From IMG/VR virus record IMGVR_UViG_2563366962_000008: 23,285 nt of DNA. One strand, given 5' to 3'. The notes under the pieces are model-generated. The model was not told the origin of the DNA. It did no database searches and saw only the letters and a list, made by a program, of their open reading frames with translations. Position numbers and translations under genes: made by a program. This DNA comes from a virus. Lineage: Duplodnaviria > Heunggongvirae > Uroviricota > Caudoviricetes. Every line of letters begins with the position of its first letter. The first letter of the stretch is position 1. Positions 3,959 through 22,674 of the stretch are shown piece by piece.

Positions 3959-4987
3959 ATGGGATTGTTTACGACCCGCCAGTTACTCGGTTATACCGAA
4001 CAAAAAGTGAAATTCCGTGCGCTGTTTCTGGAGCTGTTTTTCCGCCGTACGGTGAATTTCCACACCGAAGAGGTGATGCTGGACAAAATTACCGGAAAAA
4101 CGCCGGTGGCGGCCTATGTCTCCCCGATCGTTGAAGGAAAAGTGCTTCGCCATCGCGGTGGTGAAACCCGCGTGTTGCGTCCGGGCTACGTCAAGCCGAA
4201 ACACGAATTTAATTACCAGCAGGCGGTTGAGCGCCTTCCTGGTGAAGATCCGGCTCAGCTGAACGACCCGGCCTACCGTCGTCTGCGTATCATTACCGAT
4301 AACCTCAAACAGGAAGAGCACGCGATTGTCCAGGTGGAAGAAATGCAGGCGGTAAATGCTGTGTTGTATGGCAAATACACCATGGAAGGGGATCAGTTTG
4401 ATACTGTCGAGGTGGATTTCGGGCGCTCTGAAGGAAATAACATTGAGCAGGCTGACGGTAAAAAATGGTCTGAGCAGGACCGTGATACGTTTGATCCGAC
4501 GCATGATATTGACCTCTACTGCGATCAGGCCAGCGGCCTTGTGAATATCGCCATTATGGACGGTACGGTCTGGCGTCTGCTGAATGGCTTTAAGCTGTTC
4601 CGCGAAAAACTGGATACCCGTCGCGGCTCAAATTCACAACTCGAAACGGCAGTGAAAGATCTGGGCGCAGTGGTGTCCTTCAAGGGGTATTACGGCGATC
4701 TGGCCATTGTGGTGGCGAAAACGTCTTATGTGGCAGAGGACGGTACCGAAAAACGTTATCTGCCGGAGGGCATGCTGGTGTTGGGGAATACGGCGGCAGA
4801 GGGGATTCGTTGCTATGGTGCCATTAAGGATGCACAGGCGTTGTCTGAAGGAGTGGTGGCTTCTTCCCGTTACCCGAAACACTGGCTGACCGTGGGCGAT
4901 CCGTCCTGTGAATTCACCATGACGCAGTCCGCTCCGCTGATGGTGCTGCCGGATCCGGATGAGTTTGTGGTGGTACAGGTGAAATAA
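3959..4987 (+). CDS. E: Major capsid protein gpE
   Basis: 342-aa ORF (lambda E is 341 aa); YVSPIV, PGYVKPKH, DPAYRR, IVQVEEMQAV, KLDTRRGSNS.LETAVKDLG and SAPLM match lambda gpE as recalled. Confidence 0.95.
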   Translation: MGLFTTRQLLGYTEQKVKFRALFLELFFRRTVNFHTEEVMLDKITGKTPVAAYVSPIVEGKVLRHRGGETRVLRPGYVKPKHEFNYQQAVERLPGEDPAQLNDPAYRRLRIITDNLKQEEHAIVQVEEMQAVNAVLYGKYTMEGDQFDTVEVDFGRSEGNNIEQADGKKWSEQDRDTFDPTHDIDLYCDQASGLVNIAIMDGTVWRLLNGFKLFREKLDTRRGSNSQLETAVKDLGAVVSFKGYYGDLAIVVAKTSYVAEDGTEKRYLPEGMLVLGNTAAEGIRCYGAIKDAQALSEGVVASSRYPKHWLTVGDPSCEFTMTQSAPLMVLPDPDEFVVVQVK

Positions 4988-4994
4988 TCCGTGA

Positions 4995-5024
4995 GCGGGG
5001 GCGAAATGCCCCCGTGTCTTTTTT
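4995..5024 (+). terminator. GC-rich hairpin followed by a T-run between E and FI (possible attenuator/terminator)
   Basis: GGGGGC (4997-5002), loop GAAAT, GCCCCC (5008-5013), then GTGTCTTTTTT; sits 8 nt after the E stop and just before the FI RBS. Confidence 0.4.
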
Positions 5025-5038
5025 CACAGGAGGCTGAG

Positions 5039-5422
5039 ATGGCAACAAAAGAAGAAAATCTGAATCGTCTTCGTCAACTGGCTGACCTGCTGGGGCGCGA
5101 GGCGGATATGTCGGGGAGTGCTGCGGATATTGCTCAACGTGTGTCTGAGTGGGAAGAGGAGCTTGCTGTTTCCCCGGAGGGCATTATGCACTCTGATGAG
5201 AGCGGGGCTGATCAAAATCACACAGACGATGGTGAGCAGTTGAACAACACGGATGCTCCGGATGATGTTAAAGCCGTCCGGGTACGGAAGTGCCTGCAAG
5301 TAATGGGGTATTGCCCGGAGACAGGTCGTCCCGTTGAGCTGGCGTTACGGGGTATGCGTGTTCTGGTGCCATCATCACTGGCAACGGCCATGATACAGCA
5401 CGGAACGGCTGAATATGCGTGA
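5039..5422 (+). CDS. FI: DNA packaging protein FI-like
   Basis: In-frame ATG at 5039 preceded by AGGAGG (5029-5034); 127 aa, acidic central region; size and position match lambda FI (132 aa), sequence only loosely similar. The ORF-track start at 4991 lacks an RBS. Confidence 0.7.
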   Translation: MATKEENLNRLRQLADLLGREADMSGSAADIAQRVSEWEEELAVSPEGIMHSDESGADQNHTDDGEQLNNTDAPDDVKAVRVRKCLQVMGYCPETGRPVELALRGMRVLVPSSLATAMIQHGTAEYA

Positions 5423-5768
5423 TTTTCAGAATGCCTTTGATGCTGCCCTCGCCGGGGTAGACAGTACGATCGTTGAAGTGATGGGGCTCTGTGCGCAGTT
5501 CACCTCGGGGGCACAGTGTGGCAGCGAAGTTCAGGGGGTTTTTGATGATCCGGAGTCGCTGGGGTTTGCCGGTGGCGGGGTCCGTATTGAAGGAAGCAGC
5601 CCGTCATTATTTGTGCGGACGGATACGGTTCGTGCCGTGCGGCGTGGTGACACGCTGACCATTAATGGTGAGATATTCTGGGTGGATCGTGTTTCTCCGG
5701 ATGACGGGGGCAGCTGTTATCTCTGGCTCAACCGTGGTCAACCACCCGCAGTTAACCGGCGACGATAA
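5415..5768 (+). CDS. FII: Head-tail connector protein FII
   Basis: 117-aa ORF (lambda FII is 117 aa); GVFDDPE, GSSPSLFVRTD, RRGDTLTI and FWVDRVSPDDGGSC match lambda FII as recalled. Confidence 0.9.
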   Translation: MRDFQNAFDAALAGVDSTIVEVMGLCAQFTSGAQCGSEVQGVFDDPESLGFAGGGVRIEGSSPSLFVRTDTVRAVRRGDTLTINGEIFWVDRVSPDDGGSCYLWLNRGQPPAVNRRR

Positions 5769-5783
5769 ACGCAGGGTGAAATT

Positions 5784-6317
5784 ATGGCGATAAAAGGGCT
5801 TGATCAGGCGATTGACAATCTGAGCCGGGTTCGTAAAAACGCCATTCCGGCGGCTTCAGCAATGGCCATTAACCGCGTGGCCACAACGGCGATTAATCAG
5901 TCTTCATCACAGGTTGCCCGGGAGACAAAGGTTCGCCGGAAACTGGTTAAGGAACGGTCCAGACTGAAACGGGCGACGGTCAGAAATCCGAATGCCAGAA
6001 TTATCGTTAACCGCGGTGATCTCCCTGTGATTAAGCTGGGGATCAGGATGCTGGGGCGTCGCCCGAACAGCATACTTAAAGCCGGTCAGCATCGGTATCA
6101 GCGGGCATTTATTCAGAGATTAAAAAATGGTCGCTGGCATGTCATGCAGCGTGTGGCCGGGAAAAACCGTTACCCCATTGATGTGGTGAAAATCCCGATG
6201 GCGGCCCCACTGAAACAGGCATTTGATGAGAATGTTGACCGTATCCGGCGTGAACGCCTGCCTAAAGAACTGGCATACGCGCTGAAACAACAACTGAGGA
6301 TTGCAATAAAACGATGA
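5784..6317 (+). CDS. Z: Tail completion protein gpZ
   Basis: 177-aa ORF; MAIKGL, SSQVARETKVRRKLVKER and FIQRLKNGRWHVMQRVAGKNRYPIDVVKIPMA match lambda Z (192 aa), with a shorter, different basic segment mid-protein; stop overlaps the U start as ATGA. Confidence 0.85.
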   Translation: MAIKGLDQAIDNLSRVRKNAIPAASAMAINRVATTAINQSSSQVARETKVRRKLVKERSRLKRATVRNPNARIIVNRGDLPVIKLGIRMLGRRPNSILKAGQHRYQRAFIQRLKNGRWHVMQRVAGKNRYPIDVVKIPMAAPLKQAFDENVDRIRRERLPKELAYALKQQLRIAIKR

Positions 6318-6709
6318 AACACACTGACATTCGTGCCGCAGTGCTGGATGCACTCGAGCAGCATGAACACGGGGCGACGCTGTTTGATGGTCGCCCCGTT
6401 GTTTTTGACGAAGAGGATTTTCCTGCGATCGCGGTTTATCTGACGGATGCAGAGTATACCGGTGAAGAGCTGGATGCAGATACCTGGCGGGCCACGCTGC
6501 ATATTGAGGTGTTTTTACCGGCACAGGTACCGGATTCAGAGCTTGATCAGTGGATGGAAAGCCGGATTTACCCGGCGATGACCGCGATCCCGGCACTGGC
6601 AGGACTGATTACCACGATGGTTACGCAGGGCTATGAGTATCGTCGTGATGACGATATGGCGTTATGGAGTTCTGCAGATCTGACTTATTCCATTACATAC
6701 GAGATGTGA
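6314..6709 (+). CDS. U: Tail terminator protein gpU
   Basis: 131-aa ORF (lambda U is 131 aa); [15 protein letters not shown]...[17 protein letters not shown]...[13 protein letters not shown] matches lambda U. Confidence 0.9.
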
Positions 6710-6716
6710 GGACGAT

Positions 6717-7469
6717 ATGGCAACACCAAATCCCCTTGAGCCGGTAAAAGGTGCCGGTACCACTCTGTGGGTTTACAACGGCAAGGGTGATGCTTATGCA
6801 AACCCGTTGTCAGACGATGACTGGCAGCGACTGGCTAAGGTGAAGGATCTGACGCCGGGCGAGATGACGGCAGAATCCTACGATGATAACTACCTGGATG
6901 ATGAAGACGCGGACTGGACCGCGACCGGGCAGGGGCAGAAATCTGCAGGTGATACCAGTTTTACGCTGGCCTGGAAACCGGGAGAGGAAGGCCAGAAAGG
7001 GCTTATAGGCTGGTTTGAAAGCGGCGATGTCCGGGCCTATAAAATCCGTTTTCCGAATGGCACGGTGGATGTGTTTCGTGGCTGGGTCAGCAGTATCGGT
7101 AAGGCCGTGACGGCGAAAGAAGTGATCACCCGCACGGTGAAAGTCACTAACGTGGGTAAACCTTCTGTAGCGGAAGAACGCAGCAAAATTACGCCGGTCA
7201 GTGCGATTAAGGTGACGCCGACATCCGGTACGGTGGCAAAAGGGAAAACAACCACCCTGACGGTTTCTTTTGAGCCGGAAAGTGCAACCGACAAGACGTT
7301 CAGAGCGGTTTCCGCCGATCCGTCGAAAGCCACCATTAGTGTGAAAGATATGACAATTACGGTAAACGGCGTGGCGACAGGTAAGGTGCAGATCCCTGTG
7401 GTGAGCGGAAATGGTCAGTTCGCCGCAGTGGCTGAAGTCACCGTTACTGAAGCGGGCGCTGCAGGGTAA
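6717..7469 (+). CDS. V: Major tail tube protein gpV with C-terminal Ig-like (Big_2-type) domain
   Basis: 250-aa ORF (lambda V is 246 aa); [50 protein letters not shown] and C-terminal ITVNGVA...[11 protein letters not shown] match lambda V. Confidence 0.95.
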
Positions 7470-7482
7470 ACGGAGGTAATAC

Positions 7483-7914
7483 ATGTTTCTGAAAACAGAA
7501 CAATTTGAATATAACGGTGTGTCTGTCACGCTTTCCGAATTGTCTGCGCTGCAGCGTATCGAGCATCTTGCCCTCCTGAAACGGCGTGCAGAACAGGCAG
7601 AATCCTGCGGCAACCTGCAGGTAAGCGTGGAAGATCTCGTCAGAACCGGCGCGTTTCTGGTGGCGATGTCCCTGTGGCATAACCATCCACAGAAAACGCA
7701 GTCACCGTCAATGAATGAGGCCGTGATGAAGATAGAGCAGGAAGTGCTCACCACCTGGCCTGCCGATGCCATTGCCCGGGCGGAAGACGTGGTGTTGTGC
7801 CTGTCCGGGATGATCGAAGCTGTTCGTCCGGATACTGATATTACTGAAGTGGCGAAAAATAACACGCTGACTGATGATGATTTTTCTGCGGGAAAGTCTT
7901 CGACGGCGAGCTGA
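7483..7914 (+). CDS. G: Tail assembly chaperone gpG
   Basis: 143-aa ORF (lambda G is 140 aa); MFLKTE.FE.NGV.VTLSELSALQRIEHLAL and AMSLWHNHPQKTQ.PSMNEAV match lambda G; RBS GGAGG at 7472-7476. Confidence 0.9.
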   Translation: MFLKTEQFEYNGVSVTLSELSALQRIEHLALLKRRAEQAESCGNLQVSVEDLVRTGAFLVAMSLWHNHPQKTQSPSMNEAVMKIEQEVLTTWPADAIARAEDVVLCLSGMIEAVRPDTDITEVAKNNTLTDDDFSAGKSSTAS

Positions 7915-8354
7915 ACTTTGCCCTCAGACTGGCGCGTGAGATGGGGAGACCCGACTGGCGCGCCATGCTTGCCGGGATGACATCCACCGAATATGCCGAC
8001 TGGCACCGTTTTTACCGCACGCATTATTTTCAGGATACCCAGCTGGATATGCATTTTTCCGGGCTGACGTACGCTGTACTCAGCCTGTTTTTTTGCGATC
8101 CGGATATGCATCCCTCTGATTTCAGTCTGCTTGTCCCCCGGCATGAGGAAGAGCAGGTGGAGAGGCCGGATGAGGACAAAATGCTGATGCAGAAAGCGGC
8201 AGGACTTGCCGGAGGCGTCCGGTTCGGTGGGGACGGAGGGCGCGATATTTTATCGTCTGCGGATGTGGCGGATGTCATGGTGGATGATGCCGCATTAATG
8301 ATGGCTTCAGCGGGGATTCCGGGAGGTGTGAGATATGTCCCAGCCGGTTGGTGA
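7483..8354 (+). CDS. T: Tail assembly chaperone gpGT fusion made by -1 frameshifting at 7890-7896; T moiety about 7896-8354
   Basis: -1 frame ORF (track 7941-8354) reads MGRPDWRAMLAGM.STEYADWHRFY.THYF...DMHFSGLTY.VLSLFF.DPDMHP.DFSLL, matching lambda T as recalled; there is no independent RBS for T. Confidence 0.8.
7890..7896 (+). promoter_or_regulatory. Programmed -1 ribosomal frameshift slippery heptamer GGGAAAG (G to G-T)
   Basis: GGGAAAG sits 16 nt upstream of the G stop; the -1 frame is open from here to 8354 and encodes the T-like sequence; same heptamer and position as the lambda G|T shift. Confidence 0.7.
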
Positions 8355-10908
8355 TCTTGTTATTGACCTGAGTCTGGATGCTGTCCGTTTCGATGAGCAG
8401 ATGAGCCGGGTAAGGCGTCATTTTTCAGGTCTGGATACCGACGCCAGAAAAACCGCCAGTGCTGTTGAACAGGGCCTGAGCCGCCAGGCGCTGGCTGCAC
8501 AAAAAGCCGGGATTTCCGTCGGGCAGTATAAAGCGGCCATGCGAACCCTGCCCGCACAGTTTACGGATATCGCCACGCAGCTTGCCGGTGGTCAGAATCC
8601 CTGGTTGATCCTGCTGCAACAGGGCGGTCAGGTGAAGGACTCCTTCGGCGGGATGATCCCCATGTTCAGGGGGCTTGCCGGTGCGATCACCCTGCCGATG
8701 GTCGGGGTCACCTCGCTGGCGGTGGCGACAGGTGCGCTGGCGTACGCCTGGTACCAGGGCGACGCCACGCTTTCAGAATTTAATAAAACGCTGGTCCTTT
8801 CCGGCAATCAGGCCGGACTGACTGCCGATCGTATGCTGACGCTCTCAAGAGCCGGGCAGGCAGCAGGGCTGACGTTTAACCAGGCGAGAGAGTCACTGGC
8901 AGCCTTGGTGAATGCCGGTGTGCGTGGTGGTGAACAGTTTGATGCCATCAACCAGAGTGTCGCGCGTTTTGCGTCTGCATCCGGTGTGGAGGTGGATAAA
9001 GTCGCTGAAGCCTTCGGGAAGCTGACCACTGACCCGACGTCGGGACTGATGGCGATGGCGCGCCAGTTCCGTAACGTGACGGCAGAGCAGATTGCGTATG
9101 TTGCACAGCTGCAGCGTTCCGGAGACGAGGCCGGGGCATTGCAGGCGGCGAACGATATCGCCACGAAAGGCTTTGATGAGCAGACCCGTCGCCTGAAAGA
9201 AAACATGGGAACACTGGAGACCTGGGCGGATAAAACAGGGAAGGCATTCAAATCGATGTGGGATGCCATTCTGGATATCGGTCGTCCGGAATCCTCAGCG
9301 GATATGCTCGCCAGTGCGCAGAAGGCATTTGATGAGGCGGATAAAAAATGGCAGTGGTACCAGAGCCGGAGCCAGCGCCGGGGAAAGACCTCCTCTTTTC
9401 GTGCGAACCTTCAGGGGGCATGGGATGACCGGGAAAATGCCCGTCTGGGTCTGGCAGCGGCCACGCTGCAGTCGGATATGGAAAAAGCCGGTGAACTGGC
9501 GGCAAGGGACAGGGCTGAGCGTGAGTCGTCACAGCTGAAGTATACCGGAGAGGCGCAGAAGGCGTATGAGCGCCTGCAGACGCCGCTGGATAAATATACC
9601 GCCCGTCAGAAAGAGCTGAATAAGGCCCTGAAAGACGGAAAAATCCTGCAGGCGGATTACAACACGCTGATGGCGTCGGCAAAAAAGGATTATGAATCGA
9701 CGCTGAAAAAGCCGTCAGGTGTGAAGGTGTCTGCCGGTGAGCGCCAGGAAGACCGGGCGCATGCAGCCCTGCTGGCGCTTGAAACCGAGCTCAGGACGCT
9801 GGAAAAACACAGCGGTGTGAATGAGAAAATCAGCCAGCAGCGCCGGGATTTATGGGAAGCGGAAAGTCAGTATGTGGTCCTGAAAGAGGCCGCCACGAAA
9901 CGGCAGTTATCTGAGCAGGAAAAATCCCTGCTGGCTCATGAGAAAGAGACGCTGGAGTACAAACGCCAGCTGGCTGAGCTGGGAGACAAGATTGAACACC
10001 AGAAGCGGCTGAATGAGCTGGCACAGCAGGCGGCGCGGTTTGAACAGCAGCAAAGCGCGAAGCAGGCGGCAATCAGCGCAAAAGCCCGCGGCCTCACCGA
10101 CCGTCAGGCGCAGCGGGAGTCGGAAGAGCAGCGCCTTCGTGAGGTGTACGGTGATAATCCGGCTGCGCTGGCGAAGGCCACATCGGCACTGAAGAACACC
10201 TGGTCTGCGGAGGAGCAGCTTCGTGGAAGCTGGATGGCCGGGATGAAGTCCGGCTGGGGAGAGTGGGCGGAAAGTGCGACGGACAGTTTTTCGCAGGTTA
10301 AAAGTGTGGCCACGCAGACCTTTGACGGTATTGCACAGAATATGGCGGCGATGCTGACCGGCAGCGAACAGAACTGGCGGGGATTCACCCGTTCCGTGCT
10401 GTCCATGATGACAGAAATTCTGCTTAAGCAGGCAATGGTGGGGATTGTCGGGAGTATCGGCAGCGCCATTGGCGGGGCTGTTGGTGGCGGCGCATCCGCG
10501 TCAGGCGGTACAGCCATTCAGGCCGCTGCGGCGAAATTCCATTTTGCAACCGGAGGATTTACGGGAACCGGCGGCAAATATGAGCCAGCGGGGATTGTTC
10601 ACCGTGGTGAGTTTGTCTTCACGAAGGAGGCAACCAGCCGGATTGGCGTGGGGAATCTCTATCGGCTGATGCGCGGCTATGCCACCGGTGGTTATGTCGG
10701 TACACCGGGCAGTCTGGCTGACAGCCGGTCGCAGGCGTCCGGGACGTTTGAGCAGAATAACCATGTGGTGATTAACAACGACGGCACGAACGGGCAGATA
10801 GGTCCGGCTGCTCTGAAGGCGGTGTATGACATGGCCCGCAAGGGTGCCCGTGATGAAATCCAGGCACAGATGCGCGATGGTGGTCTGTTCTCCGGAGGTG
10901 GACGATGA
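8335..10908 (+). CDS. H: Tail tape measure protein gpH
   Basis: 857-aa ORF (lambda H is 853 aa) between G-T and M; long coiled-coil-like E/K/Q/A-rich centre and Gly-rich C-terminus; stop overlaps the M start as ATGA. Confidence 0.95.
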   Translation: MSQPVGDLVIDLSLDAVRFDEQMSRVRRHFSGLDTDARKTASAVEQGLSRQALAAQKAGISVGQYKAAMRTLPAQFTDIATQLAGGQNPWLILLQQGGQVKDSFGGMIPMFRGLAGAITLPMVGVTSLAVATGALAYAWYQGDATLSEFNKTLVLSGNQAGLTADRMLTLSRAGQAAGLTFNQARESLAALVNAGVRGGEQFDAINQSVARFASASGVEVDKVAEAFGKLTTDPTSGLMAMARQFRNVTAEQIAYVAQLQRSGDEAGALQAANDIATKGFDEQTRRLKENMGTLETWADKTGKAFKSMWDAILDIGRPESSADMLASAQKAFDEADKKWQWYQSRSQRRGKTSSFRANLQGAWDDRENARLGLAAATLQSDMEKAGELAARDRAERESSQLKYTGEAQKAYERLQTPLDKYTARQKELNKALKDGKILQADYNTLMASAKKDYESTLKKPSGVKVSAGERQEDRAHAALLALETELRTLEKHSGVNEKISQQRRDLWEAESQYVVLKEAATKRQLSEQEKSLLAHEKETLEYKRQLAELGDKIEHQKRLNELAQQAARFEQQQSAKQAAISAKARGLTDRQAQRESEEQRLREVYGDNPAALAKATSALKNTWSAEEQLRGSWMAGMKSGWGEWAESATDSFSQVKSVATQTFDGIAQNMAAMLTGSEQNWRGFTRSVLSMMTEILLKQAMVGIVGSIGSAIGGAVGGGASASGGTAIQAAAAKFHFATGGFTGTGGKYEPAGIVHRGEFVFTKEATSRIGVGNLYRLMRGYATGGYVGTPGSLADSRSQASGTFEQNNHVVINNDGTNGQIGPAALKAVYDMARKGARDEIQAQMRDGGLFSGGGR

Positions 10909-11936: not shown

Positions 11937-12680
11937 ATGACAGAGACAGAATCAGCGATTCTGGCGCACGCCCGGCGATGTGCGCCAGCGGAGTCGTGCG
12001 GCTTCGTGGTAAGCACGCCGGAGGGGGAAAGATATTTCCCCTGCGTGAATATCTCCGGTGAGCCGGAGGCGTATTTCCGGATGGCTCCGGAGGACTGGCT
12101 GCAGGCAGAGATGCAGGGTGAGATTGTGGCGCTGGTCCACAGCCACCCCGGTGGTCTGCCCTGGCTGAGTGAGGCTGACCGGCGGCTGCAGGTGCAGAGC
12201 GATTTGCCGTGGTGGCTGGTCTGCCGGGGGGCGATTCACAAGTTCCGCTGTGTGCCGCATCTCACCGGGCGGCGCTTTGAGTACGGGGTGACAGACTGTT
12301 ACACACTGTTCCGGGATGCTTACCATCTGGCGGGGATTGAGATGCCGGATTTTCATCGCGGGGATGACTGGTGGCGTCACGGTCAGAATCTCTATCTTGA
12401 CAATATGGAGGCTACTGGTTTTTACCGTGTCGCACTGACAGAGGCGCAGCCGGGCGATGTGCTGCTGTGCTGTTTTGGTTCATCGGTGCCGAATCACGCC
12501 GCCATTTACTGCGGCGACGGTGAGCTGCTGCACCATATTCCTGAACAACTGAGTAAACGAGAGAGGTATACCGACAAATGGCAGCGACGCACACACTCCC
12601 TCTGGCGTCACCGGGAATGGCACGCATCTGCCTTTACGGGGATTTGCAACGATTTGGCCGCCGCATCGACCTTCGTGTGA
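11937..12680 (+). CDS. K: Tail tip assembly protein gpK (JAMM/MPN-like plus NlpC/P60-like motifs)
   Basis: ATG at 11937, 5 nt after the L stop (MTETESAILAHARRC...); JAMM-type motif HSHPGG...SEAD; downstream Cys (VTDCYTLF) and His (VPNHAAIY) fit an NlpC/P60 fold. The ORF-track start at 11895 lies inside L. Confidence 0.85.
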   Translation: MTETESAILAHARRCAPAESCGFVVSTPEGERYFPCVNISGEPEAYFRMAPEDWLQAEMQGEIVALVHSHPGGLPWLSEADRRLQVQSDLPWWLVCRGAIHKFRCVPHLTGRRFEYGVTDCYTLFRDAYHLAGIEMPDFHRGDDWWRHGQNLYLDNMEATGFYRVALTEAQPGDVLLCCFGSSVPNHAAIYCGDGELLHHIPEQLSKRERYTDKWQRRTHSLWRHREWHASAFTGICNDLAAASTFV

Positions 12681-13219
12681 AAACGGGGGCTGAAGCCATC
12701 CGGGCACTGGCCACACAGCTCCCGGCGTTTCGTCAGAAACTGAGCGATGGCTGGTATCAGGTACGGATTGCCGGGCGGGATGCAGGAGAAACCGAATTAT
12801 CATCCCGTCTTAATGAGCCGCTGGCAAATGGTGCCGTGATCCACATCGTGCCGCGTCTTGCGGGAGCAAAAAGTGGCGGTGTGTTTCAGGCGGTGCTGGG
12901 TGCGGCGTTGATTGCTACGGCAATCTGGATGCCGGGGATCAGTATCGCTTTCAGTGACATTCTCTTTTCAATGGGTGCGGCGATGACGCTTGGTGGTGTG
13001 GCGCAGATGCTGGCACCGAAAGCCAGAACTCCCCGTACACAGACAACGGATAACGGCAAACAGAACACCTATTTCTCCTCACTGGATAACATGGTTGCCC
13101 AGGGCAATGTCCTGCCTGTTCTGTACGGTGAAATGCGCGTGGGGTCACGTGTGGCATCTCAGGAGATCAGCACGGCAGATGAAGGGGATGGTGGTCAGGT
13201 TGTGGTAATTGGGCGGTAA
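12578..13219 (+). CDS. I: Tail tip assembly protein gpI
   Basis: 213-aa ORF overlapping the 3' end of K as in lambda; MAATHTLPLASPGMARICLYGDLQRFGRRIDLRVKTGAEAIRALATQLPAFRQKL and C-terminal LAPKARTPR.QTTDNGKQNTYFSSLDNMVAQGNVLPVLYGEMRVGSRV match lambda I. Confidence 0.9.
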   Translation: MAATHTLPLASPGMARICLYGDLQRFGRRIDLRVKTGAEAIRALATQLPAFRQKLSDGWYQVRIAGRDAGETELSSRLNEPLANGAVIHIVPRLAGAKSGGVFQAVLGAALIATAIWMPGISIAFSDILFSMGAAMTLGGVAQMLAPKARTPRTQTTDNGKQNTYFSSLDNMVAQGNVLPVLYGEMRVGSRVASQEISTADEGDGGQVVVIGR

Positions 13220-13292
13220 TATTATTTTACTCATGTTCTAACTAATTTAATATTTATATCGAACACTGATAATTATTCTATTGGTTAGCTAT
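13220..13292 (+). promoter_or_regulatory. AT-rich leader of the lipoprotein cassette; possible autonomous promoter, hexamers not confidently assigned
   Basis: About 80% A+T block immediately after the I stop, unlike the flanking GC-rich phage DNA; contains a GATAAT-like -10 candidate at 13268-13273. Confidence 0.2.
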
Positions 13293-13631
13293 ATGAACAA
13301 AACGATTTTATTCTGCACGATTATTGCCTTAACAGGATGTAAATCTTTGGATTACGTAAAATCCGGAAAACCTGTAATGGAAGGTAATTCATTAAAAAAT
13401 ATTGATGAATTGTCAGGCTGCATATCCAGACAATGGGCTGGTAATGGAACACCTATAACATCCCTTCCTATTGAGAATGGGGTAAGCCTTTTAGTTCCAC
13501 AGGCTATGGGGGGATATGATGTTGTGCTTGATATCAAAAAAGCAGGAAATGGCAGTAGTTTTACTCTTTATGAACGTGTACCAGCATTAACGCCAAAAAT
13601 TTTTGCTGATAGTGTTAATGCATGTAAATAA
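13293..13631 (+). CDS. Small secreted lipoprotein of unknown function (moron inserted between I and J)
   Basis: 112-aa ORF from ATG 13293 (track start 13281 is TTG); N-terminus MNKTILFCTIIALTGC is a signal peptide with lipobox L-T-G-C; mature part has two further Cys; gene is visibly AT-rich versus its neighbours; followed by its own terminator. Confidence 0.7.
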   Translation: MNKTILFCTIIALTGCKSLDYVKSGKPVMEGNSLKNIDELSGCISRQWAGNGTPITSLPIENGVSLLVPQAMGGYDVVLDIKKAGNGSSFTLYERVPALTPKIFADSVNACK

Positions 13632-13655
13632 TAGTTAATCCTGTCGTAACTCATG

Positions 13656-13684
13656 AGCCGCCTTTTGGGCGGCTTTGTTGTTTA
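13656..13684 (+). terminator. Rho-independent terminator after the lipoprotein gene
   Basis: AGCCGCC (13656-13662), loop TTTTG, GGCGGCT (13668-13674), then TTGTTGTTTAT; 25 nt after the stop and 14 nt before the J start. Confidence 0.55.
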
Positions 13685-13697
13685 TGGAGTGTGAGGA

Positions 13698-16600
13698 ATG
13701 GGTAAAGGAAGCAGTAAGGGGCATACCCCGCGCGAAGCGAGGGACAACCTGAAGTCCACGCAGCTGCTGAGTGTGATCGATGCCATCAGCGAAGGGCCGG
13801 TTGAAGGTCCGGTGGACGGATTAAAAAGCGTGCTGCTGAACAGTACGCCGGTGCTGGACAGTGAGGGGAATACCAATATATCCGGTGTCACGGTGGTGTT
13901 CCGGGCAGGTGAGCAGGAGCAGACACCGCCGGAGGGATTTGAATCCTCCGGCTCCGAGACGGTGCTGGGTACGGAAGTGAAATATGACACGCCGATCACC
14001 CGGACCATCACGTCGGCAAACATCGACCGTCTGCGCTTTACCTTCGGTGTGCAGGCACTGGTGGAAACCACCTCAAAGGGGGACAGGAATCCGTCGGAAG
14101 TCCGCCTGCTGGTTCAGATCCAGCGTAACGGTGGCTGGGTGACGGAAAAAGACATCACCATTAAGGGCAAAACCACCTCGCAGTATCTGGCCTCGGTGGT
14201 GGTGGATAACCTGCCGCCGCGCCCGTTTAATATCCGGATGCGCAGGATGACGCCGGACAGCACCACAGACCAGCTGCAGAACAAAACGCTCTGGTCGTCA
14301 TACACCGAAATCATCGATGTGAAACAGTGCTACCCGAACACGGCACTGGTCGGCGTGCAGGTGGACTCGGAGCAGTTCGGCAGCCAGCAGGTGAGCCGTA
14401 ATTATCATCTTCGCGGGCGCATTCTGCAGGTGCCGTCGAACTATAACCCGCAGACGCGGCAATACAGCGGTATCTGGGACGGAACGTTTAAACCGGCATA
14501 CAGCAACAACATGGCCTGGTGTCTGTGGGATATGCTGACCCATCCGCGCTACGGCATGGGGAAGCGTCTCGGTGCGGCGGATGTGGACAAATGGGCGCTG
14601 TATGTCATCGGCCAGAATTGCGACCAGTCGGTGCCGGATGGCTTTGGTGGCACGGAGCCGCGCATCACCTGTAATGCCTACCTGACCACACAGCGCAAGG
14701 CGTGGGATGTGCTCAGTGATTTCTGCTCGGCGATGCGCTGTATGCCGGTATGGAACGGGCAGACGCTGACGTTCGTGCAGGACCGACCGTCGGATAAGGT
14801 GTGGACCTATAACCGCAGTAATGTGGTGATGCCGGATGATGGCGCGCCGTTCCGCTACAGCTTCAGCGCCCTGAAAGACCGCCATAATGCCGTTGAGGTG
14901 AACTGGATTGACCCGGATAACGGCTGGGAGACGGCGACAGAGCTTGTGGAGGACACGCAGGCCATTGCCCGTTACGGTCGTAACGTCACGAAGATGGATG
15001 CCTTTGGCTGTACCAGCCGGGGGCAGGCACACCGCGCCGGGCTGTGGCTGATTAAAACGGAACTGCTGGAGACGCAGACCGTGGATTTCAGCGTGGGTGC
15101 TGAAGGGCTTCGCCATGTACCGGGCGATGTCATTGAAATCTGCGATGATGACTATGCCGGTATCAGCACCGGTGGTCGCGTGCTGGCGGTGAACAGCCAG
15201 ACCCGGACGCTGACGCTCGACCGTGAAATCACGCTGCCATCCTCCGGTACCACGCTGATAAGCCTGGTTGACGGTCAGGGTAATCCGGTCAGCGTGGAGG
15301 TCCAGTCCGTCACCGACGGCGTGAAGGTGAAAGTGAGCCGTGTTCCTGACGGCGTTGCAGAATACAGCGTGTGGGGGCTGAAGCTGCCGACGCTGCGCCA
15401 GCGCCTGTTCCGCTGCGTGAGTATCCGTGAGAACGATGACGGCACGTATGCCATCACCGCCGTGCAGCATGTACCGGAGAAAGAAGCCATCGTGGATAAC
15501 GGGGCGCACTTTGACGGTGACCAGAGCGGCACGGTGAATGGTGTCACGCCGCCAGCAGTGCAGCACCTGACCGCCGAAGTCACTGCAGACAGCGGGGAAT
15601 ATCAGGTGCTGGCGCGATGGGACACACCGAAGGTGGTGAAGGGCGTGAGCTTCCTGCTCCGTCTGACCGTAACAGCGGACGACGGCAGTGAGCGACTGGT
15701 CAGCACGGCCCGGACGACGGAAACCACATACCGCTTCACGCAACTGGCGCTGGGGAACTACAGGCTGACAGTCCGGGCGGTAAATGCCCGGGGGCAGCAG
15801 GGCGATCCGGCGTCGGTATCGTTCCGGATTGCCGCACCGGCAGCACCGTCGAGGATTGAGCTGACGCCGGGCTATTTTCAGATAACCGCCACGCCGCATC
15901 TTGCTGTTTATGACCCGACGGTACAGTTTGAGTTCTGGTTCTCGGAAAAGCGGATTACCGATATCAGGCAGGTTGAAACCACAGCCCGCTATCTTGGTAC
16001 GGCGCTGTACTGGATAGCCGCCAGTATCAATATCAAACCGGGCCATGATTATTATTTTTACGTTCGCAGTGTGAACACCGTTGGCAAATCGGCATTCGTG
16101 GAGGCTGTCGGTCGGGCGAGCGATGATGCGGAAGGTTACCTGGATTTTTTCAAAGGAGAAATCGGGAAAACACATCTGGCCCAGGAGTTGTGGACGCAGA
16201 TTGATAACGGTCAGCTTGCGCCGGACCTGGCTGAAATCAGGACGTCCATTACGAATGTCAGCAATGAAATCACGCAGACCGTCAATAAAAAACTGGAAGA
16301 CCAGAGTGCGGCAATCCAGCAGATACAGAAAGTTCAGGTTGATACAAATAATAACCTGAACAGCATGTGGGCCGTGAAACTGCAGCAGATGAAGGACGGA
16401 CGCCTTTATATTGCGGGTATCGGAGCCGGTATTGAGAATACGCCAGCAGGTATGCAGAGTCAGGTGCTTCTGGCTGCTGACCGGATTGCGATGATTAATC
16501 CTGCGAATGGCAACACAAAGCCGATGTTTGTTGGTCAGGGCGATCAGATATTCATGAACGACGTGTTCCTGAAACGCCTGACGGCTCCGACCATTACCAG

Positions 16601-17177
16601 CGGCGGTAATCCTCCGGCATTTTCCCTGACACCGGACGGGCGGCTGACGGCGAAAAATGCCGATATCAGCGGTAACGTGAATGCGAACTCCGGGACGCTC
16701 AACAACGTCACGATTAACGAGAACTGTCGGGTTCTGGGAAAATTGTCCGCCAACCAGATTGAAGGCGATCTCGTTAAAACAGTGGGCAAAGCTTTCCCCC
16801 GGGACTCCCGTGCACCGGAACGGTGGCCATCAGGGACCATCACCGTCAGGGTTTATGACGATCAGCCGTTTGACCGGCAGATTGTTATTCCGGCGGTGGC
16901 ATTCAGCGGCGCTAAACATGAGCGGGAGAATAACGATATTTATTCGTCATGCCGCCTGATAGTACGGAAAAACGGTGCTGAAATTTATAACCGTACCGCG
17001 CTGGATAATACGCTGATTTACAGTGGTGTTATTGATATGCCAGCTGGTCGCGGCCACATGACGCTGGAGTTTTCGGTGTCAGCATGGCTGGTGAATAACT
17101 GGTATCCCACAGCAAGTATCAGCGATTTGCTGGTTGTGGTGATGAAGAAAGCCACCGCAGGCATCAGTATCAGCTGA
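13698..17177 (+). CDS. J: Central tail fibre / tail tip host-specificity protein gpJ
   Basis: 1159-aa ORF (lambda J is 1132 aa); the first ~800 aa look near-identical to lambda J as recalled ([33 protein letters not shown]...); the C-terminal ~340 aa are mosaic, with the last ~150 aa divergent. Confidence 0.95.
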
Positions 17178-22005: not shown

Positions 22006-22674
22006 CTATTTTTTCCCTGAAGCGGAAAACATTACTACAGTACCTTTAACCTTGGTTTTAACATTCTCGAAATGCTCTGAGAGTATATGTGTTAAGCCTT
22101 CTTCGGAATCTTTTGTGTTTGAAAAGATGCCTTTTTGATTGTAAATGCGCATCAGTTTTTGACCGAAGCTATTGTGCACAACGCCGTCACCAAGAATTGT
22201 GGCTCCGTATAGAGTTCCATCGTCAGTTAAGGCCTGCGCCGCATTGCGTATTACACAGCTTTTTGTAGATATATTTCCAGGCAGGCAGTGAAGAAGGTAA
22301 AACATGGAAATGGAATCAAATTGACCATGTAACGCCGCGGGATAAGGTTCAAAAACATCATGGCTAATTTTATGTTTAATTTTTGATTCCCCAGCCCTTG
22401 TCGATGCCGCGTTCAGGCTAGCTTCGTTCAAATCCATTAAAGATATCAGACTACTCTCAGGTACGTGAGTAAGGTAAAACCCAGTTCCAACACCAATATC
22501 CAGATGGTTGTTACCTACATGTTCCAGAAAGTGTGGAAGAAGGTGTTCCTTTGTAGGACATCCCCATGCAAGCCGATTTGATACTCCCAAAACCCACCAG
22601 TCATAAAGCTTTAGGGTAAGTGGTGTGTAAATTTTAGCCCCATCATCTGTGTTTTTTTTCATTAATTTCACCAT
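22006..22674 (-). CDS. Class I SAM-dependent methyltransferase (Rossmann-fold), substrate unknown; AT-rich moron
   Basis: 222-aa minus-strand ORF; motif I LDIGVGTGFY (D-x-G-x-G-x-G); acidic residue after beta-2 (LMDLNE); alternative start at 22662 (MKKNTDD) preceded by GGTGA; composition much more AT-rich than the phage genes. Confidence 0.65.
   Translation of the reverse strand: MVKLMKKNTDDGAKIYTPLTLKLYDWWVLGVSNRLAWGCPTKEHLLPHFLEHVGNNHLDIGVGTGFYLTHVPESSLISLMDLNEASLNAASTRAGESKIKHKISHDVFEPYPAALHGQFDSISMFYLLHCLPGNISTKSCVIRNAAQALTDDGTLYGATILGDGVVHNSFGQKLMRIYNQKGIFSNTKDSEEGLTHILSEHFENVKTKVKGTVVMFSASGKK

Follow-up and report, generated by a model that had tools for sequence, protein, structure and literature searches.

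The 23,285-nucleotide viral DNA stretch IMGVR_UViG_2563366962_000008 (called the window below, at its full length) belongs to a lambda-like prophage. Between the tail genes I and J it carries an insert of about 430 bp, which very probably is a moron encoding an outer-membrane lipoprotein. The lipoprotein gene is real and under purifying selection, and it is not tied to any particular type of the neighbouring gene J. We propose that the product would act at the level of the cell envelope and exclude incoming phages irrespective of the receptor recognized by the phage itself. The probability of this explanation as a whole is estimated at about 0.38. The protein is a further member of a widespread uncharacterized family that already has a moron label in phage phiKO2 and a profile, phrog_914.

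The tail assembly gene I (12578–13219, + strand; open reading frame list and RefSeq annotation "tail assembly protein" in the UTI89 prophage) ends with the TAA codon at 13217–13219, and the insert starts right after it. To the right, the gene J (13698–17177, + strand; open reading frame list, RefSeq annotation and comparison with lambda J) encodes the 1159-residue tail tip and host-specificity protein. The spacer from the I stop to the J start (13220–13697) measured 478 bp, as compared to 60 bp in lambda (I up to 15444, J from 15505); both lengths agree with the preliminary description. In the alignment with lambda, mEp332 and cdtI, in which I is joined directly to J by a spacer of approximately 60–70 nt devoid of a lipoprotein gene, the homology stopped at the I stop codon and resumed around position 13650. 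The DNA absent from the three phages (13220–13650, + strand, approximately 430 bp) stands in place of about 10–15 nt of their spacer. The content in G and C (GC) was 0.285 over positions 13200–13399 and 0.36 in the open reading frame (ORF) described below, for 0.56–0.60 in the flanks on both sides (approximately 0.58). The contrast in composition with the surrounding phage DNA, noted earlier, was therefore observed, with 36% against 58% GC. Two of the marks of a moron (defined in PMC3594210, citing Juhala et al. 2000) are present, namely additional DNA separating genes that adjoin each other in related phages (478 nt versus approximately 60–70 nt) and a base composition unlike that of the surroundings. 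The definition further comprises a promoter and a terminator belonging to the moron, and expression from the repressed prophage. The lipoprotein gene, the extra DNA relative to lambda, mEp332 and cdtI, and the foreign composition together constitute a moron signature. On these three points the earlier moron assignment stood; the terminator that it had attributed to the cassette, and a promoter in the leader, were not supported.

The insert (13221–13650) was found in 337 of 5426 complete Escherichia coli genomes (6%) at 97.4–100% identity, and the flanking I and J ends in 4086 of them, showing that the insert is a presence/absence polymorphism of E. coli prophages. The region is identical in E. 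coli UTI89, S88, APEC O1, IHE3034 and others; CE10, NU14 and O104:H4 were other carriers among the top matches listed.

The only credible ORF in the gap (13293–13631, + strand; translation, conservation, phrog_914 match and AlphaFold2 model) starts with the ATG at 13293. It encodes a 112-residue protein beginning with MNKTILFCTIIALTGC, WP_001332187.1, annotated "hypothetical protein" in the UTI89 prophage. To be taken as a lipoprotein, a protein had to show a positively charged n-region, an uncharged hydrophobic h-region and the motif [LVI][ASTVI][GAS]C with the cysteine within the first 15–35 residues. The textbook lipoprotein signal peptide announced in the preliminary description was confirmed by this test, with Lys3 in the n-region, an uncharged hydrophobic h-region, the canonical lipobox LTGC and a Lys at +2 (MNKTILFCTIIALTG-C16). 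The signal peptide corresponds to residues 1–15 (13293–13337, + strand; translation, L-T-G of the lipobox ahead of Cys16), the codon of Cys16 to positions 13338–13340, and the mature domain comprises 97 residues. The lipobox-Cys pattern was present in 103 of 108 family representatives, Cys16 being nearly invariant. An Asp at +2, which is the inner-membrane retention signal according to the Lol rule, was seen in none of the 103 recognizable lipoboxes, and sorting to the outer membrane is predicted for this reason. The lipoprotein would thus sit in the outer membrane and face the periplasm. Cys43 and Cys111, invariant in the 108 representatives, probably form a disulfide, which would also imply a periplasmic location.

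Among 27 distinct alleles collected from 62 loci, the most diverged E. coli alleles differed by 4–6 synonymous changes versus 0–1 non-synonymous changes, and this large synonymous excess demonstrates purifying selection. Strain CE10 encodes an identical protein despite six coding and four non-coding differences from the window. A few frameshifted or truncated copies exist (L074–L076; P0002, P0003, P0007).

The terminator scan identified, downstream of the ORF, a GC-rich hairpin (13655–13675; nine pairs, six of them G-C) with a T-rich tail extending to about 13684, then TTTATGGAG, the ribosome-binding region of J (whole element 13655–13684, + strand; terminator scan and homologous hairpins in other I–J spacers). 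The preliminary description had assigned this terminator to the cassette. This could not be maintained, as the hairpin, the T-run and TTTATGGAG have homologous counterparts in the lipoprotein-less I–J spacers of lambda, mEp332 and cdtI, base for base for the hairpin itself. From this comparison the hairpin is read as ancestral to the I–J junction, a property of the slot rather than of the cassette, and the presence of the same element in lipoprotein-less spacers indicates that the insert landed just upstream of a pre-existing hairpin. The motif recurred in six other I–J spacers. The hairpin, T-run and TATGG ahead of J were found in Klebsiella, Kluyvera, Enterobacter, Fraca and Atlantibacter, whatever the cargo present, and also in HK97, and the depositors of phiKO2 and HK97 labelled the hairpin before J "putative terminator". 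A terminator-like hairpin followed the lipoprotein gene in 129 of 132 family loci, all slots taken together, and the one in the window could terminate a lipoprotein transcript. More broadly, a hairpin, a T-run and TATGG(A/G) directly upstream of J were seen in lambda-like tail modules of at least six genera (window 13655–13697; lambda, L088, 6446–6505; HK97, L180, 6608–6641; L007 6990–7053; L014 6986–7036; L011 12285–12336; L002 7992–8044; L090 8991–9048), and in the K–I and T–tape measure slots the same element lies downstream of the cargo gene. In an anti-terminated late operon it could serve as a prophage-state terminator, as a stabilizer of mRNA 3' ends or as a recombination boundary.

At the edges of the insert, TTGGGCGG occurs at 13209–13216 (end of I) and 13665–13672 (3' arm of the hairpin), and ACTCATG at 13229–13235 and 13649–13655, just inside both edges. 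Direct repeats at the edges were comparable in length to chance repeats within the same 511 nt. They are probably not target-site duplications, and the insertion may have been mediated by microhomology. Two other possible occupants of the spacer were discarded. The sole candidate for a gene on the opposite strand was a 61-residue ORF with a TTG start (13352–13537). An Rfam match to the small RNA GcvB (13458–13683), which covers the hairpin as well as the downstream part of the ORF, reached 19.6 bits for a gathering score of 42 (E 0.071), and is most likely due to chance, driven by the terminator hairpin.

The distribution of the family over the tail operon was then established from neighbours classified by tblastn with the tail proteins of the window and of Fraca. 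The order I–lipoprotein–J was found in every one of the 57 E. coli-clade loci from IMG/VR and RefSeq that share at least 92% identity and in which I was covered. The Klebsiella and Kluyvera loci examined showed K–lipoprotein–I, the Enterobacter-type loci tail chaperone T–lipoprotein–tape measure, and the Fraca-type subfamily K–lipoprotein–I in 79 of 80 loci, usually about 33 nt after K. In all three slots the gene was on the strand of the tail genes, and 141 of 142 phage family loci with classified neighbours lay inside tail modules. K–I is the commonest position and I–J was occupied by the family in E. coli only; I–J is a derived, minority position for this lipoprotein. The position beside J, put forward earlier as a functional clue, loses this value because I–J is one of three standard cargo slots and most relatives reside in the other two. 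The slot used by the Enterobacter relatives, from the tail chaperone gene to the tape-measure gene, is also that of HK97 gp15, which was the first moron to be described (PMC3594210). The cargo of the HK97 I–J slot, gp22 (annotated "moron product") and gp23 ("reverse moron product"), is unrelated to the family.

Several other cargo genes were noticed in these slots. The 320-bp K–I gap of HK97 (L180, 5014–5334), with no annotated gene, has a GC of 0.42 versus 0.53–0.56 and the usual hairpin downstream. It contains an ORF for a hydrophobic peptide of about 32 residues (MYTVGFGWIFVGIFIGLILWFFINRASVRANR), which looks like another small membrane-protein moron; a decayed family lipoprotein gene was searched for in this gap by tblastn with a negative result. 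The IMG/VR prophage L077, whose lipoprotein matches that of Jejubacter calystegiae (P0006), has an island of about 4.8 kb in the K–I slot (4060–8910). By eye, it appears to include genes for two antirepressor-like proteins, for a small helix-turn-helix regulator and for a ribbon-helix-helix-like protein. These are followed by the family lipoprotein (7971–8312) and, directly downstream, by a second, unrelated lipoprotein of 149 residues (8406–8855). In LMessi another lipoprotein gene (MRKFLSILACSLIIVGC...) lies immediately upstream of the family gene, the codons of the two abutting or overlapping, and in Atlantibacter a gene for a small signal-peptide protein abuts or overlaps it upstream. Such upstream genes for small exported proteins exist in part of the Fraca-type subfamily (L003 6647–6994; L090 7603–8001; L002 6725–6994), and the pair may form a two-gene envelope module. 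Within the window, downstream of the tail-fibre assembly gene, a 222-residue ORF (22006–22674, − strand) corresponds by position and length to a "class I SAM-dependent methyltransferase" of the UTI89 prophage and is likely another cargo gene at the prophage end.

The protein J of the window was approximately 98% identical to lambda J over residues 1–800 and approximately 45% over the last 160 residues, so that the divergence of the C-terminus suspected in the preliminary description was verified. Between residues 800 and 950 the identity was 30–60%, with 28 extra residues, and it rose to 96% over residues 950–1000 (window 16098–17177 for residues 800–1159). On this alignment, the window J appears as a mosaic relative to lambda J. 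The C-termini were compared in 31 lipoprotein-positive loci with a complete J, the window not being counted; one further locus had a truncated J. Twenty-four were of the window type, three were only 57% identical, two were 74% identical, and two were shorter with about 50 alignable residues. Lipoprotein copies at least 99% identical accompanied at least four J C-terminal types. Among lipoprotein-positive loci, tape-measure identity covered 27–100%, with at least three types. The last 600 nt of the window J were found at a coverage of at least 80% in about 3350 of the 5426 E. coli genomes, some ten times the 337 with the lipoprotein; it is the most frequent J C-terminus of E. coli prophages, those of O157:H7 included. 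The idea that lipoprotein and receptor specificity had been acquired together is not supported by these figures. The survey of co-variation between the lipoprotein and the J C-terminal type found none, and the match between allele and receptor-binding domain expected of the Llp/Rtp45/Cor class was not seen. Because near-identical copies occur with at least four J types and at least three tape-measure types, the target would not be among the variable parts of the phage itself.

The window protein matched phrog_914 (function unknown) over its full length (E 7.3e-33, residues 1–112 of 112, profile positions 1–118 of 118). It was related to phiKO2 gp19 (AY374448.1; BLASTP, 26% identity, E 1e-7), labelled by its depositors [quoted passage not shown]; on account of this label, the moron reading has a precedent inside the family. 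The phiKO2 genome was reportedly published by Casjens et al. in 2004. An exhaustive profile search yielded 416 cluster representatives (clusters at 50% identity, E <1e-3). Homologues at 50–62% identity were found in Klebsiella, Kluyvera, Enterobacter and Jejubacter, and a sister, Fraca-type subfamily (approximately 25–30% identity) in E. coli, Enterobacter, Citrobacter, Atlantibacter and Pantoea, with members in the phages Fraca, LMessi, phiKO2 and Serratia OS31. The GC of the family loci was on average 13 points under that of the flanks, and more than 5 points under in 131 of 132. Between E. coli and Klebsiella or Kluyvera the lipoprotein was 50–54% identical, compared to 30–37% for the adjacent tail proteins, which suggests either a recent exchange or a constraint by a conserved host partner. 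The most distant members (15–23% identity) were Pseudomonas chromosomal genes in a conserved non-phage neighbourhood (ahpC/ahpF, DUF1652, TauE); those examined are at L091 8001–8333, L094 8001–8330 and L089 8001–8330, and one adjoins a BamE-like gene. A distant Dyella member was located in a phage-like region outside any tail module. A host lipoprotein gene is the probable source of the phage gene; HK97 gp15 is likewise related to a host protein, YebO (PMC3594210). The repetitive proteins P0087 and P0172 were discarded as relatives, their scores being sums of weak repeat matches only. Pfam and PADLOC gave no matches, NCBIfam gave VirB7 only (E 0.08, over the signal peptide), and PDB sequence searches with two family profiles returned matches to the signal peptide only. 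A literature search on the WP_001332187.1/phrog_914/XCC2962 family found no paper.

The AlphaFold2 model, obtained from a 58-sequence alignment (mean predicted local distance difference test, pLDDT, 88.9), showed after the signal helix a strand, a helix, four strands and a C-terminal helix (beta-alpha-beta4-alpha). The first helix contains Cys43; Cys111 is at the end of the C-terminal helix. With Foldseek, the best PDB match was Flpp3 (E 0.01, template modelling (TM) score 0.51) and the best match among the viral models of BFVD was an uncharacterized protein of Pseudomonas phage phiAH14a (25% identity; TM scores of 0.70 for the query and 0.83 for the target). A spanin, of either the Rz1 or the unimolecular type, was rejected in view of the folded 97-residue domain and the lack of a proline-rich stretch or a C-terminal membrane segment.

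We propose the following model. The moron would be a horizontally mobile accessory gene, dropped into a standard slot of the tail operon just upstream of the hairpin that precedes J. From its strand and its position inside the operon, we infer that it is transcribed with the late tail genes. Autonomous expression in lysogens is plausible; it would start from a weak promoter in the leader, and the I–J hairpin would stop read-through into J. After processing by signal peptidase II, the lipoprotein would be carried by the Lol pathway to the outer membrane and anchored on its inner face, with the disulfide-stabilized alpha/beta domain of 97 residues facing the periplasm. From there it might bind a conserved envelope component and so protect the cell from incoming phages, and perhaps also from colicins or tailocins. 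Such an exclusion would be generic or heterotypic, unmatched to the receptor-binding domain of the phage's own J. Three observations lead to this model: the family is almost confined to tail modules of temperate siphoviruses; the characterized cargo proteins gp15 and Cor, and the analogous Llp and Rtp45, act in this way (PMC3594210, PMC9586334, PMC12685063); and the lipoprotein is more conserved than its neighbours, which fits a conserved host partner. As the specific function, generic exclusion at the envelope is put forward as a tentative hypothesis, less likely than not to be right.

A number of results weigh against the model. In the AT-rich leader of 73 nt (13220–13292, + strand; GC and promoter scan), no sigma-70 consensus promoter was found on the + strand at the scan threshold. 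At a lower threshold the best hexamer pairs with a 16–18 nt spacer reached 8/12, in AT-rich DNA. These weak sigma-70-like pairs (TTTACT-16-TAATAT, 13226–13253; TTTAAT-16-GATAAT, 13246–13273) were unchanged in 27 of 27 alleles, and the Shine-Dalgarno sequence of the ORF was poor. No consensus promoter was found upstream of the Klebsiella and Enterobacter relatives, and most K–I members follow K after about 33 nt, a short interval for a lysogen promoter. PADLOC-DB models gave no match for five family members at E values up to 1. The distant relatives being ordinary Pseudomonas chromosomal genes, the ancestral role would be a host function unrelated to phages. The predicted fold is a generic helix-grip/TBP-like alpha/beta domain that assigns no function, and neither Llp nor Rtp45 was among the Foldseek matches listed. 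In addition, hhalign of the family profile against Fraca Cor aligned residues 1–31 only, the signal peptide, and the Llp structure (PDB 8a60_B) matched residues 1–19 only (E 1.3). The likeness to Llp and Cor evoked in the preliminary description thus does not amount to kinship, the signal peptides alone being similar.

A generic or heterotypic target is favoured over a masking of the phage's own receptor because the lipoprotein is uncoupled from the J and tape-measure alleles. Masking of the Cor/Llp/Rtp45 type would prevent re-adsorption of the phage to lysogens, infected cells and lysis debris. It would suit a small outer-membrane lipoprotein with a disulfide, similar in this to Llp and Rtp45 (PMC9586334, PMC12685063), and a gene directly upstream of J in a late operon, made alongside the progeny; the window-type J C-terminus is also its commonest partner (24 of 31 loci). 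We nevertheless hold it to be improbable, since copies at least 99% identical are also associated with J C-termini that are 57–74% identical or unalignable, genomes with this J type outnumber those with the lipoprotein about tenfold, and most family members are away from J. Moreover, Fraca possesses both a family lipoprotein gene and a separate cor, and neither homology nor a fold match to Cor, Llp or Rtp45 was found for a domain of 97 residues instead of about 60. Another reading, unlikely in our opinion, makes the protein a lysogenic-conversion factor of benefit to the host, contributing to envelope robustness, serum or antimicrobial resistance, or colonization in the manner of lambda Bor/Iss or Lom. 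Many of the top matches listed are extra-intestinal pathogenic strains (UTI89, S88, APEC O1, IHE3034, CE10, NU14), to which O104:H4 is added, but this enrichment may reflect the sampling of clonal ST95. Flpp3, the closest match among solved structures, is a virulence-associated outer-membrane lipoprotein of Francisella, the chromosomal homologues of Pseudomonas imply a role of the fold in host physiology, and the window itself has a moron of this kind, Lom, immediately after J. Against a host-benefit role, no similarity to Bor/Iss was detected (no Pfam or NCBIfam match), and the location of 141 of 142 phage loci in tail modules is unexpected for a pure host-fitness gene.

The gene might also be an accessory of the late lytic cycle with no role in the prophage. 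Its product, synthesized only together with the tail proteins, would work in the periplasm of the dying cell, for instance by neutralizing a host envelope factor able to inactivate new tails, inhibiting the K peptidase until release or aiding envelope disruption. K is a tail-associated peptidase with JAB and NlpC/P60 domains. It is the commonest neighbour of the family, most relatives lying about 33 nt from it on the same strand with a good Shine-Dalgarno sequence and no recognizable promoter. The gene is dispensable, however, given that lambda, mEp332, cdtI and about 3700 E. coli genomes have the I and J flanks without it; it is not spanin-like, it changes slots independently of K, and the hairpin after the gene in 129 of 132 loci would matter mainly for transcripts that are not anti-terminated, i.e., those of the prophage state. 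A purely lytic role accordingly appears to us improbable as well. That the insert is functionless hitch-hiking DNA or a decaying gene, as the few frameshifted or truncated copies could suggest, is very improbable in view of the strong synonymous excess, the identical protein across diverged DNA alleles, and the invariant cysteine pattern over a family of 416 cluster representatives. A more specific version of the exclusion model, which we regard as rather unlikely, would define a new class, in which a lipoprotein confers broad, receptor-independent exclusion by acting on a conserved step after binding. It could neutralize the K peptidase (JAB plus NlpC/P60) of the incoming tail tip, as MliC- and PliC-type lipoproteins neutralize lysozymes, or lock a conserved outer-membrane machine. 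Such a class would explain the residence in the tail operon by K, I or J without a match to any J or tape-measure allele.

Accessory genes of prophages that remodel the envelope determine the range of phages, and perhaps of colicins or host defences, that a lysogen is able to resist. The present family also occurs in phages of Klebsiella, Enterobacter, Kluyvera, Citrobacter, Atlantibacter and Serratia, with no assigned function or Pfam family. If it were a true exclusion factor, it would be a structurally new addition to the Cor/Llp/Rtp45 group, untied to a particular receptor, and would bear on the prediction of host range for phage therapy of pathogenic E. coli and Klebsiella. For annotators, a simple rule emerges: three recurrent cargo slots (T–tape measure, K–I and I–J), each just upstream of a hairpin/T-run/TATGG element.

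Among known systems, the closest to the window protein are phiKO2 gp19 and phrog_914, which share its size, lipobox, two conserved cysteines, lambda-like tail operon and downstream hairpin. They differ in position, phiKO2 gp19 and most relatives being in K–I and the E. coli clade in I–J, where the leader is longer (73 nt) and far more AT-rich. The HK97 morons resemble the cassette by their slots and by their lower-GC DNA upstream of a hairpin/T-run before the next tail gene. The HK97 I–J and K–I sequences are unrelated to the family (by tblastn, nothing better than E 0.05, gp15 not being included). Whereas the window protein is a predicted outer-membrane lipoprotein, HK97 gp15 resides in the inner membrane and gp22 lacks a signal peptide. 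Gp15 is a proven superinfection-exclusion protein, expressed by the prophage and acting in the envelope, and Cor is an envelope-acting exclusion protein of a siphovirus (both in PMC3594210). The small helix-grip/TBP-like lipoprotein domains of Flpp3 (Francisella, DUF3568) and of the BamC N-domain are comparable in fold, with a sequence identity of 6–12%. Pfam DUF3568 matched none of the 108 family members, and the fold, which recurs in many unrelated proteins (DUF302, KA1 domains, Bet v 1), thus leads to no functional assignment. T5 Llp acts on FhuA (PMC9586334) and Rtp45 on LptD (PMC12685063). With a mature domain of about 60 residues, as against about 97 in the window protein, Cor (phi80, N15, HK022 and Fraca), Llp and Rtp45 are, like the latter, small disulfide lipoproteins encoded in or near the host-recognition genes of siphoviruses, and for all of them the predicted location is the outer membrane, on its periplasmic side (PMC9586334, PMC12685063).

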